From a virus (Duplodnaviria > Heunggongvirae > Uroviricota > Caudoviricetes): 6,073 nt of DNA. Position 1 is the stretch's first letter, and every line of letters starts with the position of its first letter. This document shows positions 1,355 to 6,073 of this stretch, one piece after another. Location of the stretch: the IMG/VR virus record IMGVR_UViG_2534681736_000018; one strand, written 5' to 3'. A model generated the notes under the pieces. That model was not told the origin of the DNA. It worked only from the letters and a program-made list of their open reading frames with translations, and searched no databases. A program made the translations under genes and the position numbers.

Positions 1355-2608
1355 ATGCTGGAACAAATGGGCATTGCCGCGAAGCAAGCCTCGTATAAAT
1401 TAGCGCAACTCTCCAGCCGCGAAAAAAATCGCGTGCTGGAAAAAATCGCCGATGAACTGGAAGCACAAAGCGAAATCATCCTCAACGCTAACGCCCAGGA
1501 TGTTGCTGACGCGCGAGCCAATGGCCTTAGCGAAGCGATGCTTGACCGTCTGGCACTGACGCCCGCACGGCTGAAAGGCATTGCCGACGATGTACGTCAG
1601 GTGTGCAACCTCGCCGATCCAGTGGGGCAGGTAATCGATGGCGGCGTACTGGACAGCGGCCTGCGTCTTGAGCGTCGTCGCGTACCGCTGGGGGTTATTG
1701 GCGTGATTTATGAAGCGCGCCCGAACGTGACGGTTGATGTCGCTTCGCTGTGCCTGAAAACCGGTAACGCGGTGATCCTGCGTGGTGGCAAAGAAACCTG
1801 TCGCACTAACGCGGCAACGGTGGTGGTGATTCAGGACGCCCTGAAATCCTGTGGCTTACCGGCGGGTGCCGTGCAGGCGATTGATAATCCTGACCGTGCG
1901 CTGGTCAGTGAAATGCTGCGTATGGATAAATACATCGACATGCTGATCCCGCGCGGCGGGGCTGGTTTGCATAAACTGTGCCGCGAGCAGTCGACGATCC
2001 CGGTGATCACAGGTGGTATAGGCGTATGCCATATTTATGTTGATGAAAGTGCAGAGATTGCTGAAGCCCTGAAAGTAATCGTCAATGCGAAAACTCAGCG
2101 TCCGAGCACATGTAATACGGTAGAAACGTTGCTGGTGAATAAAAACATCGCCTATAGCTTCCTGCCCGCATTAAGCAAACAAATGGCGGAAAGCGGCGTG
2201 ACGTTACACGCAGATGCATCTGCGCTGGCGCAGTTGCAGACAGGCCCTGCGAAGGTGGTGGCGGTTAAAGCCGAAGAGTATGACGATGAGTTTCTGTCAT
2301 TAGATTTGAACGTCAAAATCGTCAGCGATCTTGACGATGCCATCGCCCATATTCGTGAACACGGCACGCAACACTCCGATGCGATCCTGACCCGCGATAT
2401 GCGCAACGCCCAGCGTTTTGTTAACGAAGTGGATTCGTCCGCTGTTTACGTTAACGCCTCTACGCGTTTTACCGACGGCGGCCAGTTTGGACTGGGTGCG
2501 GAAGTGGCGGTAAGCACACAAAAACTCCACGCGCGTGGCCCAATGGGGCTGGAAGCACTGACCACTTACAAGTGGATCGGCATTGGTGATTACACCATTC
2601 GTGCGTAA
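1355..2608 (+). CDS. proA: Gamma-glutamyl phosphate reductase (glutamate-5-semialdehyde dehydrogenase), 417 aa
   Basis: ORF 1355-2608 preceded by AAGGAG (1342-1347) 7 nt upstream of ATG; translation ([30 protein letters not shown]...) recognisable as ProA, aldehyde dehydrogenase superfamily; proBA operon arrangement. Confidence 0.96.
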
Positions 2609-2613
2609 ATAAA

Positions 2614-2679
2614 ACCGGGTGATGCAAAAGTAGCCGTTTGATTCACAAGGCCATTGACGCATCGCCCGGTTAGTTTTAA
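2614..2679 (+). terminator. Possible proBA terminator / thrW upstream structure
   Basis: 12-bp stem (2614-2625 ACCGGGTGATGC pairs with 2659-2670 GCATCGCCCGGT, one G-U) followed by TAGTTTTAA; the 33-nt loop is atypically large for an intrinsic terminator. Confidence 0.3.
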
Positions 2680-2722
2680 CCTTGTCCACCGTGATTCACG
2701 TTCGTGAACATGTCCTTTCAGG

Positions 2723-2798
2723 GCCGATATAGCTCAGTTGGTAGAGCAGCGCATTCGTAATGCGAAGGTCGTAGGTTCGACTCCTATTATCGGCACCA
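2723..2798 (+). tRNA. thrW: tRNA-Thr (anticodon CGU), 76 nt with encoded CCA
   Basis: GCCGATA acceptor stem pairing with TATCGGC, D-arm GCTCAGTTGGTAGAGC, anticodon loop TTCGTAA (CGT), T-arm GGTTCGACTCC, 3' ACCA; matches E. coli thrW from memory. 114-bp gap from proA as in the K-12 arrangement. Confidence 0.95.
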
Positions 2799-2812
2799 TT
2801 AAAATCAATAAG

Positions 2813-3976
2813 TTACACATCATTAGTACCTTCCTTATTTTTTGACTGGGACAAATTTGGGACCGATGGGTTCAGGATCGAGTCTATTTGCCGTGCGTGT
2901 TCGGTAAGGTGATTAGGTGCAAGGTGAGCATATCGACGAACCATTTCGATAGACTCCCAGCCTCCCATTTCCTGTAACACTGACAACGGGACTCCGGCTT
3001 GAACCAGCCAACTTGCCCAGGTGTGTCTCAAGTCGTGAAATCTGAAATCATCAATACCAGCCCGTCTCAGCGCCGCTTTCCAGGCTGTGTTTGCGTCATA
3101 CCGCATCTTCCTTACTGTTGGCGCTTTCGTTCCGTCTGGTTTGGTACAGCTTTCCTTGTACACAAATACCCAACGGTGATGATTCCCGATTTGTTTTTTC
3201 AATACGCGACATGCAGTATCATTCAGCGCAACGCCAATTGCGCGGTTTGATTTACTCTCTTCCGGGTTTATCCATGCCACCCGGCGCTGCATATCTATTT
3301 GTTGCCATTCAAGGTTGATGATGTTCGAGCGTCTTAAGCCTGTTGCCAGTGCAAATTCAACAACAGACTTTAATGGCTCCGGACATTCATCAATCAGCCT
3401 TTGTGCTTCATGGGGCTCCAGCCAGCGGATCCGTTTATTCTTTGGTTGAGGCACTTTAATAATTGGTGCCTTATCCAGCATTTTCCATTCACGCTCTGCG
3501 GCTCTTAGTAGGGCCTTTATAAATGAAAGATGCGTAGCCTTCGTTGCAACGGACGCTGGTTTTGGCGTGTATTCTGGAACAGGTTTCCCTTTTTTTCTGC
3601 ATGCTTCTGCCCTGAGTTTCCAGTTTTCCTCATGACGCCGGTTCGTCATTTTCTGCATTGCTGAATAAATTTTTGATTCAGTAATGTCTCTTAGTTGCAT
3701 TCCTGCGAAATGTTGAAGCCAGAATCCGATCCGGCTTTTGTCATCGTCCAGCGATTTTTTATGTGCTTTCTCTTCAAGCCACCTGACACACGCTTCCTCG
3801 AACGTTATATCAGGTATTTCACCAAGTTTGCTGACCCGCCATGCTTCAGCCTTTAGCTTGTCATGGAGTTCTGTCGCCTGCCTTTTGTCCTTTGTTCCAA
3901 GAGACTGTTTAAATCTTTTACCGTTCGGCAATGTGAAACTGGCGTACCATATTTCACCTCTGCGGAAGAGTGACAT
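2813..3976 (-). CDS. int: Phage tyrosine integrase, P22 Int-like, 387 aa
   Basis: ORF 2813-3976 (-); N-terminus [41 protein letters not shown] is characteristic of P22/lambda-family integrases; C-terminal catalytic region with ...[39 protein letters not shown] (R..H..R..Y motif region). RBS AGAGGAAAG upstream of ATG. P22 is known to integrate at thrW. Confidence 0.93.
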
Positions 3977-4203
3977 TTTCTTTCCTCTGTTATGCCATCA
4001 CCCGCGCTCACCTGGACAGTATGCAGCGGAGACTGAAGAGCCGCAATGCAGGCTTGTCGTGTTGTGAGGTAAGGAGATTTATTCTTAGTGGGATCTTTGC
4101 GTGTTGCCTGAAGACGCCCTGTGCGTATCCAGTTAATGGCAGTCGGTCTGGATATCTTGAGAAAATGACAGGCCTCATCGAGTGTGAGGCTGTATGGCTC
4201 CAT
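3853..4203 (-). CDS. xis: Excisionase (Xis), P22 Xis-like, 116 aa; 3' end overlaps int by 124 nt
   Basis: Internal start of ORF 3853-4287 at ATG 4203-4201, preceded by AAGAGGTGAAATA (strong RBS); begins [31 protein letters not shown], a helix-turn-helix typical of the excisionase/AlpA family; TAATG start/stop overlap with the upstream gene. 116 aa matches my recollection of P22 Xis length. Confidence 0.75.
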
Positions 4204-4508
4204 TATTTCACCTCTTGTTGTGACATTGTTGAAAAATGGATACCTGCTCGTTGCTGCCAGACGATCCAACCGAGAGTCATATCCCATGCCATGTATTCGT
4301 TATCGCCGTTTTTTGCTCTCCGACGATCTACTAAGTCACCGAAACGCTTTTCCATGAATAATTCATAAGCTTCGCGTTCATCTGGTTCTACTTCCAGAGA
4401 TAGGAGTGCGATTTCATAAGCACGGCGCTCAATATCGTCTCGCACGTCAAGGCTGCTGATACGCTCTTTAATTTCTTTAATCAGTTCTTTGTCGGTAAAA
4501 GTGGTCAT
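4203..4508 (-). CDS. Hypothetical prophage protein, 101 aa (size and position reminiscent of CPS-53 YfdT; from memory, unverified)
   Basis: ORF 4203-4508 (-); acidic, helical-looking sequence (MTTFTDKELIKEIKERISSLDVRDDIERRAYEIALLSLEVEPDEREAYELF...); TAATG overlap with the upstream gene at 4508 and with xis at 4203; GGAG upstream of start. Confidence 0.7.
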   Translation of the reverse strand: MTTFTDKELIKEIKERISSLDVRDDIERRAYEIALLSLEVEPDEREAYELFMEKRFGDLVDRRRAKNGDNEYMAWDMTLGWIVWQQRAGIHFSTMSQQEVK

Positions 4509-4870
4509 TATGCTCCAGCCTCCGGTGCTTTTGGCATTACTGCCCAGTGAGTGATATTGACGTTTTCAAGGTCCCCGACCTGAAATGTCCACTGCCATTC
4601 TCCGGTTTCTTTTTGTCCCCAGGTGTACCAGAGAGAACGCCAGCCAATTAGCCAGCCTTCTCCGTTAGCATCGAATAACAAAACACTTTCATTTGCTGGT
4701 GGCAGTTCAGTTGACACTGGTATTACTTTGTTTTCCTGTGCTGCACATTTAGCTTCAAGCGCATCGAATTTACGCACCAGGTATTCAGCATCTGTTTCAT
4801 TCACTTTCAGATCTCGCGGTACACATCTCCCACGAAGAAACCCTTCCATTTCGAAAACATTCATGCGCAT
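4508..4870 (-). CDS. DUF551-like prophage protein, 120 aa (reminiscent of CPS-53 YfdS; from memory)
   Basis: ORF 4508-4870 (-); C-terminal Trp-rich segment GWLIGWRSLWYTWGQKETGEWQWTFQ...ITHWAVMPKAPE resembles the DUF551 pattern common in enterobacterial prophages; GGAG 8 nt upstream of ATG 4870; overlaps the HD gene stop by 10 nt. An alternative ATG at 4864 is possible. Confidence 0.7.
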   Translation of the reverse strand: MRMNVFEMEGFLRGRCVPRDLKVNETDAEYLVRKFDALEAKCAAQENKVIPVSTELPPANESVLLFDANGEGWLIGWRSLWYTWGQKETGEWQWTFQVGDLENVNITHWAVMPKAPEAGA

Positions 4871-5397
4871 TTGCGTAACTCCGATAACTCGTTAAAACGT
4901 TCCATAAACATCCCGTAGGCATGGCCCGGTGCCTGTGGAATCACTTTGAACATCTCTGTTGCCGGGATACCTTCCAGTACAGGCCAGAAAGAGCCATCAT
5001 CAAGCCCGAGATCGCGGCGTTCGGTTGCCAGCATAATGAGATCGGCATATTTCACTGGCGTGCTCATAACAGGAGGTAACCCGTATTTCTCACGTATTAC
5101 GGCGTCTATTTTTTCTTCCATCCGTTTATAGTCAGGAAGAAGTCGTTTCAGTGGTGCGGGGATGTCCTGGCAATATGCTTCTGTTGCATCATGCATTAAA
5201 GCTTCAAAAGCAAATTCCTGTGGCACCAGCTGGCTGCAAAGCACCGCATGTTGGGCGACACTGTAGAAGTGTGAAAGATGTCCTGCAAAGCGACAGATAT
5301 TTGAAAGGGAAACCGCGATATCGTTAATAACGATGTCGTCTTTATTTATCCTGTCATAATAAAAATGCTTCCCGGAAAAAGTTTTAATAAATGACAT
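4861..5397 (-). CDS. HD-domain phosphohydrolase, YfbR/YfdR-like 5'-deoxynucleotidase family, 178 aa from ATG 5397 (187 aa if from 5424)
   Basis: ORF 4861-5424 (-); motifs HFYSVAQHAVL (His) and LMHDATEAYCQDIPAPLK (HD) parallel the YfbR motifs (...HSLQVAMVAH..., YHDASEVLTGDLPTPVK) as I recall them; the start at 5397 has GGAGAA 6 nt upstream, whereas 5424 lacks a clear RBS. Confidence 0.8.
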   Translation of the reverse strand: MSFIKTFSGKHFYYDRINKDDIVINDIAVSLSNICRFAGHLSHFYSVAQHAVLCSQLVPQEFAFEALMHDATEAYCQDIPAPLKRLLPDYKRMEEKIDAVIREKYGLPPVMSTPVKYADLIMLATERRDLGLDDGSFWPVLEGIPATEMFKVIPQAPGHAYGMFMERFNELSELRKCA

Positions 5398-5521
5398 TTT
5401 GTTCTCCACGTATATGCGCTGCACCGCGCTGAATTCGGGTAAAAGGAAGCCCTCACCGTCCGGCGATTATTGAGTCAATTACATTTCCATAAATGCCCCC
5501 GTAGGGGCGGTTAGTTTCTCC

Positions 5522-5610
5522 ACAAAACAGAGAAGAACACCTGCGGTGGCAGCCGCCCGGATGGATTGGGTTATGAGCCCGTCGTCCGGTGATGCTCTTC
5601 TCTGTTTTGT
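5522..5610. repeat. Perfect 15-bp inverted repeat (ACAAAACAGAGAAGA / TCTTCTCTGTTTTGT) enclosing a 59-nt GC-rich interior
   Basis: Arms at 5522-5536 and 5596-5610 are exact reverse complements; the interior contains nested GC stems (e.g. GCGG...CCGC at 5543-5556). Confidence 0.9.
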
Positions 5611-5618
5611 AAAAAGGA

Positions 5619-5655
5619 CGGTACCAGCCGGAAGCAAGGGTACAAGCTGGTACCG
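5619..5655. repeat. Perfect 10-bp inverted repeat hairpin (CGGTACCAGC / GCTGGTACCG), 17-nt loop; on the minus strand it is followed by UCCUUUUUA (terminator-like)
   Basis: Arms at 5619-5628 and 5646-5655 are exact reverse complements; plus-strand 5610-5618 is TAAAAAGGA, so a minus-strand transcript would have a U-rich tract immediately 3' of the stem. Confidence 0.85.
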
Positions 5656-5910
5656 CTAAGACTACACACAGCATAAAGTTGTGGTGCCGGGTGCCTCCCG
5701 GTGCCTGGCGAAGGTTGCACACCAGGCGGGTGGGTATCCACAGAAGGTCGACTGTCAGCCTCAACCTTAACCCGCGTGCGCTGAGCCGCATTCACCACAA
5801 CGCTAAGGATTCTCTCTGGTTGAAAATACTTAGCTGTTATGTGCCTGTCTTTTCACCACTTCAGGCTCGGTGGTATCCTTTTAAGCCCGTATACATAAAA
5901 GGAAAATCAA

Positions 5911-6045
5911 ATGACTTTTGATGAAAAAGAACTTGATAATGCAATTAATAAAATCATCGTAACGTCGCTCTTTTCCTGTCTCAGCGACACTCAGCAAAAA
6001 CAGTTTGAACCGCCCCGGGTTTCCTGGAGAGTGTTTTATCTGTGA
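5911..6045 (+). CDS. Small ORF, 44 aa (MTFDEKELDNAINKIIVTSLFSCLSDTQQKQFEPPRVSWRVFYL), divergent from the phage operon; uncertain whether it is a real gene or a remnant
   Basis: ATG at 5911 preceded by AAAAGGAAAA (RBS-like) 6-7 nt upstream; TGA at 6043-6045; below the ORF-track threshold; no recognisable family. Confidence 0.3.
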   Translation: MTFDEKELDNAINKIIVTSLFSCLSDTQQKQFEPPRVSWRVFYL

Positions 6046-6073
6046 ACTCAGGCTGCCAGATCATCGTTTCCGA

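Follow-up and report, generated by a model that had tools for sequence, protein, structure and literature searches.

Does the mini-ORF at the right-hand end of this stretch of prophage DNA encode a small protein of its own, or is it a piece of something larger? The stretch analysed here (“the window”) is the whole of a 6,073-bp scaffold, JH699732.1, from the draft genome of Escherichia coli O157:H7 TW09195 (GCA_000267585.2; WGS AKLZ00000000). The TW09195 assembly is a short-read draft of the Velvet type in 1,288 contigs; the 26 strains of the paper PMC3593324 were sequenced with Illumina short reads alone or as Illumina/454 hybrids.

The left part of the window holds proB (153-1343), proA (1355-2608) and a tRNA-Thr gene with the anticodon CGT (thrW, 2723-2798). 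A prophage arm begins after thrW with the gene for a tyrosine integrase (2813-3976, minus strand), and it continues on the same strand with a helix-turn-helix excisionase-like gene, a yfdT-like gene (4203-4508), a gene for a phage protein (4508-4870) and yfdR, encoding a 5′-deoxynucleotidase (4861-5424). A G+C-rich structured stretch separates yfdR from the mini-ORF region. The prophage is an SfV/e14-like lambdoid prophage integrated at thrW, and its arm from 2600 to 6005 is 100% identical in many finished O157:H7 genomes.

The structured block at 5609-5831 (minus strand) aligned with the Rfam model of the sRNA STnc100 (RF02076) over the whole length of the model (positions 1-206 of 206), with a score of 43.0 bits that is just below the gathering score of 47 (E 6e-8), and it terminates in its own hairpin and U-run. 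In related genomes PGAP calls this stretch a frameshifted hypothetical-protein pseudogene. The corresponding element scores 39.5 bits in SfV and 71 bits, above threshold, in locus L016. We considered a consistent linkage of this STnc100-like RNA to the small gene described below and rejected it, as the element is missing in L008, L013 and L015.

The mini-ORF runs from 5911 to 6045 on the plus strand and specifies a product of 44 aa, MTFDEKELDNAINKIIVTSLFSCLSDTQQKQFEPPRVSWRVFYL, followed by a stop codon. A ribosome-binding site, AAGGAAAA, can be read directly at 5899-5906 (plus strand), its GGA lying 7 nt ahead of the ATG at 5911. The original prediction had listed this ribosome-binding site, the ATG and a 44-aa ORF ending at 6045, all of which are present in the window. 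It also had the ORF reading away from the phage operon, and this is the case: the integrase, excisionase-like, yfdT-like and yfdR genes are all on the minus strand. GenBank already holds the ORF as the hypothetical protein ECTW09195_0284. By itself an ORF of 44 aa is unremarkable, since the window contains 68 ORFs of at least 30 aa. What lifts this one beyond chance is the perfect agreement (100% identity) of its first 95 nt with the beginning of a conserved gene.

When positions 5850-6073 were searched against 5,426 complete E. coli genomes, the query split exactly at its base 156, which is window position 6005, and the first part matched single loci at 100% identity. Within the ORF this part (5911-6005, plus strand) is the native 5′ fragment of an 81-aa gene of the family PHROG 3311 and comprises nt 1-95, that is, codons 1-31 and two bases of codon 32. 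The fragment is 100% identical to loci L001, L003 and L006; the frame is 81 aa long in the L003/L006 type and 95 aa in L001, in which a deletion joins it to a tail-gene remnant. The match to these uninterrupted loci holds up to ...AAACAGTT (6005) and then gives way (TGAACCGCCCCGGG... / TGAACCGCCCCGGGTTTCCTGGAGAG...). The product had been described as belonging to no recognisable family. Its residues 1-32 do match the profile phrog_3311 (E 8e-18), covering only profile positions 1-32, and the product is a truncated member of that family. The original prediction had also proposed a check for sequencing or frameshift errors around 5960-6045; there is none in 5960-6005, where the sequence is identical to the reference loci. 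A deletion beginning at 6005 in typical O157:H7 genomes was considered as well and was rejected: in O157:H7 FRIK2455 the site is empty and the whole 81-aa frame is present, only unannotated by PGAP.

The remainder of the ORF comes from foreign DNA. Positions 6006-6045 (plus strand) lie in the inverted repeat of an insertion sequence and supply the third base of codon 32, the 12 codons for EPPRVSWRVFYL and a TGA stop. The 44-aa product thus consists of 32 native residues and a foreign tail. In another genome (P0005) this tail follows codon 76 of the same gene, and it is therefore merely what that frame of the insertion sequence encodes.

The DNA beyond 6005 is the terminal 68 bp (IRR end) of IS629/IS1203, an element of the IS3 family, at 6006-6073 on the minus strand, and the contig ends within the element. 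Over these 68 bases the window agrees at every position with the end of a complete 1,309-bp copy in L002 and with the element's end in L004; a 1,310-bp copy in L003 differs at three positions. Of the 5,426 complete E. coli genomes, 4,185 have this stretch, at a median of three sites per genome, which is the behavior of an insertion sequence. The terminal inverted repeat begins TGAACCGCCCCGG, as it does at the ends of complete copies, and the two ends of a complete copy agree at 22 of their first 25 positions. Just inside the right inverted repeat lies the stop codon of orfB (6048-6050). Translation of 6048-6073 on the minus strand gives the 3′ end of this IS629 gene, ...GNDDLAA, which is identical to the C-terminus (...ASIGNDDLAA) of the annotated IS3-family transposase of L002.

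The annotation of related copies agrees with this assignment. Those in L002 and L003 are annotated as an IS3-family transposase with a programmed frameshift, or as a frameshifted pseudogene of one, and the 1,310-bp copies in L003 and L017 are annotated with a programmed frameshift and a pseudoknot. PGAP labels the copies in the region as IS1203 family, and the copy in L003 is 98.9% identical to the depositor-annotated IS629 OrfA/OrfB of phage BP-4795. Neighboring complete copies are flanked by target duplications of 3-4 bp: CAG in L002, GTT in L003 and TCAG in L017. In O157:H7 there are 22-25 copies of IS629 per genome, 62% of them in prophages, with duplications of 3-4 bp (PMC3271280). The location of the window's copy in a prophage fits this published distribution, and in its inverted repeat and OrfB C-terminus it does not differ from complete copies of IS629 (= IS1203/IS3411) in O157:H7 prophages.

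The presence of this element also explains two other features of the window. First, the original prediction remarked that the window ends before the locus can be resolved, and this is correct: the window is a whole short-read contig that breaks in a repeat, and it stops at 6073 because short reads could not cross an insertion sequence of 1.3 kb that has about 20 copies. Second, a further frame on the plus strand had been reported that lacks an ATG and is not closed between 5963 and the window's end, and it does run to 6073. This frame opens after a TAA at 5960-5962, and its sole start-type codon, the TTG at 6005, lies across the IS junction. It is the +1 frame of the native gene continued into the end of the insertion sequence, antisense to orfB, and it is accidental and not a gene. 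The same frame of the insertion sequence, LNRPGFPGECFICELRLPDH..., forms the tail of the fusion products P0014 and P0028, in which IS629 is inserted in that register.

One possibility is that the junction at 6005/6006 is an assembly chimera at the end of a contig and that TW09195 truly has the intact gene. The junction lies only 68 bp from the contig end in a draft of 1,288 contigs, and no match to the exact junction at this site (thrW prophage, PHROG 3311 gene, nt 95) came from the 5,426 complete E. coli genomes or, with the 37-base junction as query, from species-representative genomes. However, the identical junction is present in a second, unrelated assembly, L004 (GCA_907175775.1), whose surrounding prophage differs and which has a SNP 9 bp upstream, and that contig also breaks inside the insertion sequence. 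The shared junction argues against a chimera. Since no complete or species-representative genome has the exact junction, its confirmation is this one other draft assembly. In addition, the switch to foreign sequence coincides exactly with base 1 of the IS inverted repeat, which is how real insertions look, and true complete insertions with target duplications are found in finished genomes 2 bp (L002) and 21 bp (L017) from the window junction. We consider a chimera very improbable.

Another possibility is that the 44-aa ORF has itself been under selection, as a genuine small protein or as a leader or regulatory peptide. It has an ATG preceded by a strong and conserved ribosome-binding site, it is annotated in GenBank as a hypothetical protein, and the same 44-aa product occurs in two assemblies. 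On the other hand, 12 of its 44 codons and its stop are IS629 inverted repeat, and the identical tail after codon 76 in P0005 shows the same sequence attached elsewhere in the gene. The common allele is the intact 81-aa form, with an intact gene pair in 404 genomes as compared to two assemblies with the 44-aa product. The conserved residues A36, I40, L59 and L63 are lost and helix 2 of the predicted fold is broken. There is no gene of the same orientation downstream for a leader peptide to regulate, the transposase being on the opposite strand, and at intact loci the ORF is a conserved 81-aa protein gene converging on its neighbor. We give hardly any credence to a selected 44-aa product.

The original prediction had named three alternatives for the small protein. 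The regulatory or leader peptide finds no support: its last 12 codons and stop originate in the IS inverted repeat, and its tail recurs in P0005. The first gene of a cargo module continuing past 6073 finds none either, as it is an insertion sequence that lies beyond 6005; in strains with an empty site, the 81-aa gene continues to its end after 6005, and beyond it come a convergent partner gene, a cI-like repressor gene, cro and ymfL. The third alternative, the remnant of a disrupted larger gene, is the one that stands, the larger gene being the 81-aa gene cut after nt 95 by IS629. The 44-aa ORF is thus almost certainly a by-product of an IS629 insertion after nt 95 of an 81-codon prophage gene, seen at a contig break.

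According to this explanation, a copy of IS629 inserted after nt 95 and left in place the native promoter region, the ribosome-binding site and the first 32 codons. Translation would run 12 codons into the IS inverted repeat and then stop, with the transposase encoded on the opposite strand. What the sequences show directly is the junction, which element and which gene meet there, and where the contig comes from. The window contains 68 bp of the element; the copy in TW09195 is presumably complete and flanked by a target duplication of GTT or AGTT, in which case the right junction would read ...GGGGCGGTTCA joined to (A)GTTCTACGAATCGG. Beyond the insertion sequence in TW09195 there would follow the remaining part of the gene, the convergent partner and the cI-like repressor gene. 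In that position IS629 would separate the repressor-proximal early-left promoter region from yfdR-xis-int, and it would be expected to be polar on these genes.

The cut falls after residue 32, inside predicted helix 2. It removes A36, I40, L59 and L63, and the remnant is without two thirds of the conserved residues. Because the remnant lacks most of the conserved positions and ends within predicted helix 2, we infer that function is almost certainly lost: the allele would be null or nearly so, and no small protein of a new kind would have arisen. For TW09195 the consequences would be the loss of the small protein and the splitting of the cassette from its partner.

The disrupted 81-aa frame has several features of a real gene. 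The intact form matches phrog_3311 end to end (positions 1-81, E 3e-55). An exhaustive search of 1.8 billion representatives returned homologues of 72-84 aa at 38-59% identity, and the conserved positions are spread along the whole 81-aa length. Compared to the orthologue at 59% identity, the differences number 23, 16 and 44 at the first, second and third codon positions, and 22 codons have synonymous changes only. The AlphaFold model is a three-helix bundle (helices 5-22, 26-45 and 53-74; pLDDT 80.7). An intact gene pair, consisting of the small gene and its convergent partner, is present in 404 of the 5,426 complete E. coli genomes. Some PGAP annotations include the small gene (WP_000141753.1), and the annotation is inconsistent. 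In the literature, no paper was found that names the protein accessions.

The signals around the start codon are conserved as well. An AAGGA/GAGG motif is kept at equal spacing in family members at 38-59% identity. Further upstream, 37-56 nt ahead of the ATG, there is a terminator-like hairpin (ACCAC...GTGGT) at 5855-5874 on the plus strand. It lies just outside the coordinates of the original prediction. Alignment and folds show that L008, L013 and L015 have a counterpart of this hairpin in the corresponding place, with altered stem bases in L015. It probably belongs to the 5′ untranslated region of the small gene, in which it may be a stabilizing element or a terminator.

Phage SfV provides the closest comparison. 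Its sequence (U82619.2, 25054-25296) contains a plus-strand frame that is 98.8% identical over all 81 residues to the intact protein and that likewise lies between cI and the early-left genes, convergent with orf33. The SfV depositors left this frame unannotated; the window's copy, unlike that of SfV, is truncated after residue 32. In strain Sakai (L012; NC_002695.2, 300042-310627), the thrW prophage, Sp1, is a different and decayed one that has an integrase pseudogene and is without the small-gene cassette. The thrW prophage therefore varies between O157:H7 lineages.

It could be argued that the 81-aa frame is no gene at all but the antisense of a promoter-proximal leader of the early-left operon, and that the remnant is biologically meaningless. 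For SfV the depositors gave only orf33, on the minus strand, and a putative terminator across the ATG region, PGAP skips the plus-strand frame in many genomes, and a consensus scan detected no sigma-70-type promoter upstream of 5911. Pfam, PADLOC and PDB sequences gave only sub-threshold noise for the 81-aa protein and its partner, and a fold search of the PDB and BFVD with the three-helix model gave nothing better than E = 1, although the lack of a fold match, which leaves no lead to a function, is expected for a small helical bundle. An antisense leader is, however, difficult to reconcile with the skew of substitutions toward the third codon position of the plus-strand frame, or with full-length homologues down to 38% identity, found at loci whose upstream DNA is poorly aligned except for the hairpin and the ribosome-binding site. 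Family members conserve the latter, and the frame is kept in phages that have the gene by the lysis cassette and not by the repressor, in L015 even without the partner. We regard the antisense reading as improbable; judged from its sequence, the intact 81-aa gene does look real.

The surroundings of the gene differ between phages. In the O157 thrW prophage, SfV and L008-L010 it lies between the minus-strand early-left genes and a cI-type repressor gene, with cro and CII/ymfL-like genes beyond. More distant members have it elsewhere: in L015 it lies between the Q antiterminator and holin genes, in L013 and L014 beside the lysis cassette, and in L016 near HicAB and a Sib RNA. The small gene opposes its flanking genes in the window, L007, L008, L013, L015 and L016, and these loci represent two different genome regions. 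Structured RNAs were also seen in some of these phages. The Sib antitoxin RNA of L016 (L016:2773-2925, minus strand) scored 107 bits and is ~250 bp from the small-gene homologue, and pairs of isrK and C4 antisense RNA occur in the immunity/replication regions of SfV and L013 (L007:7050-7238, plus strand; L013:6362-6545, minus strand).

The partner is a convergent gene of 91-107 aa (PHROG 3195; SfV orf33), and its 3′ end overlaps that of the small gene in three lineages. The overlap is ~55-110 bp (L006:252-690, L007:4501-4960, L008:4001-4439, L013:3501-3939). The partner is conserved at 50-52% identity (E 8e-36), and the two genes are conserved together, at ~50-59% identity, in phages that carry the pair in different genome regions; in L015 the small gene occurs without the partner. 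The AlphaFold model of the partner had a pLDDT of 45 and was unusable.

The pair has the geometry of ymfI/ymfJ of prophage e14 in E. coli K-12, in which a small plus-strand gene and a convergent gene of ~100 aa overlap, at the 3′ end of the latter. Beyond ymfI/ymfJ in e14, as here, there are a repressor gene (minus strand), a cro-like gene (plus strand) and ymfL. We rejected homology to YmfI/YmfJ, as BLASTP gave E 6.2 or no match and hhalign a probability of 0.2%, and ymfI/ymfJ is a positional analogue only.

The original prediction described the orientation of the ORF as that expected of a moron. This is reasonable for the intact family, which runs against the operon in five phage contexts, but this particular copy is broken. 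Lambda sieB has the layout of a phage moron, a small accessory gene set against the direction of the phage operon. Like morons such as sieB, the intact gene is small, reverse to the operon and lower in G+C than its neighbors (0.40, as compared to 0.46 for the early-left genes). Also like morons, the PHROG 3311 gene occupies variable accessory slots, by the repressor gene or between Q and the lysis genes. The PHROG 3311 protein resembles no known exclusion or defense protein in sequence or fold. The features of the intact family would fit a moron-like accessory unit.

IS629 insertions in different strains were found at a minimum of seven positions in this gene pair of ~600 bp (L002, L003, L004, L017, P0005, P0014 and P0028). 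Counted from the ATG of the small gene as nt 1, they lie at nt 74, 91, 93, 95, 172, 227 and 342. The insertion at nt 74 is in the opposite orientation and has the target duplication TCAG, and that at nt 93 has CAG; nt 95 is the site in the window and in L004; nt 342, with the duplication GTT, corresponds to codon 33 of the partner gene. Six of the seven sites share one orientation; a single orientation for all insertions was rejected, as strain 138 has the opposite one. The 8-mer AAACAGTT (window 5998-6005) occurs twice in the small gene, at nt 88-95 and nt 169-176, and five insertion events fall within it. A published survey of IS629 reported no sequence-based target preference (PMC3271280). 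As compared to that survey, several independent insertions are found here within one 8-mer.

Other variants of the gene change at the same place. P0024 and P0026 (one extra T) and P0033 (two extra T) are frameshifted exactly at the window's insertion point (~6003-6010), with CAGTT changed to CAGTTT or CAGTTTT, and two unrelated fusions (P0023 and P0025) begin directly after codon 33. The T insertions and the fusions near codon 33 could be footprints of IS excision, IS-mediated rearrangements or sequencing errors.

It could be speculated that PHROG 3311 and PHROG 3195 form a mobile two-gene cassette that lambdoid phages carry in reverse in the promoter-proximal regions of their lytic operons (by cI in phages of the SfV type, by Q or the lysis genes in others), that the cassette is expressed when those promoters are silent, and that it serves the lysogen, for example in superinfection exclusion or in damping leaky lytic transcription; separately, IS629 would have a local preference for AAACAGTT and would repeatedly inactivate the cassette in E. 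coli. We offer this proposal tentatively, as an unlikely one.

The feature itself is an ordinary IS629-truncated gene at the end of a draft contig, already in the public annotation. It carries a caution, since short hypothetical proteins at draft-contig ends are often gene fragments fused to IS inverted repeats, and recognizing ECTW09195_0284 as such a fragment strikes a false small protein from consideration. The strain-specific IS629 site in the O157:H7 thrW prophage could serve in IS-based typing. The reverse-oriented gene pair in lambdoid phages and the repeated insertion of IS629 at AAACAGTT, unsurprising as they are, are seeds for small studies.
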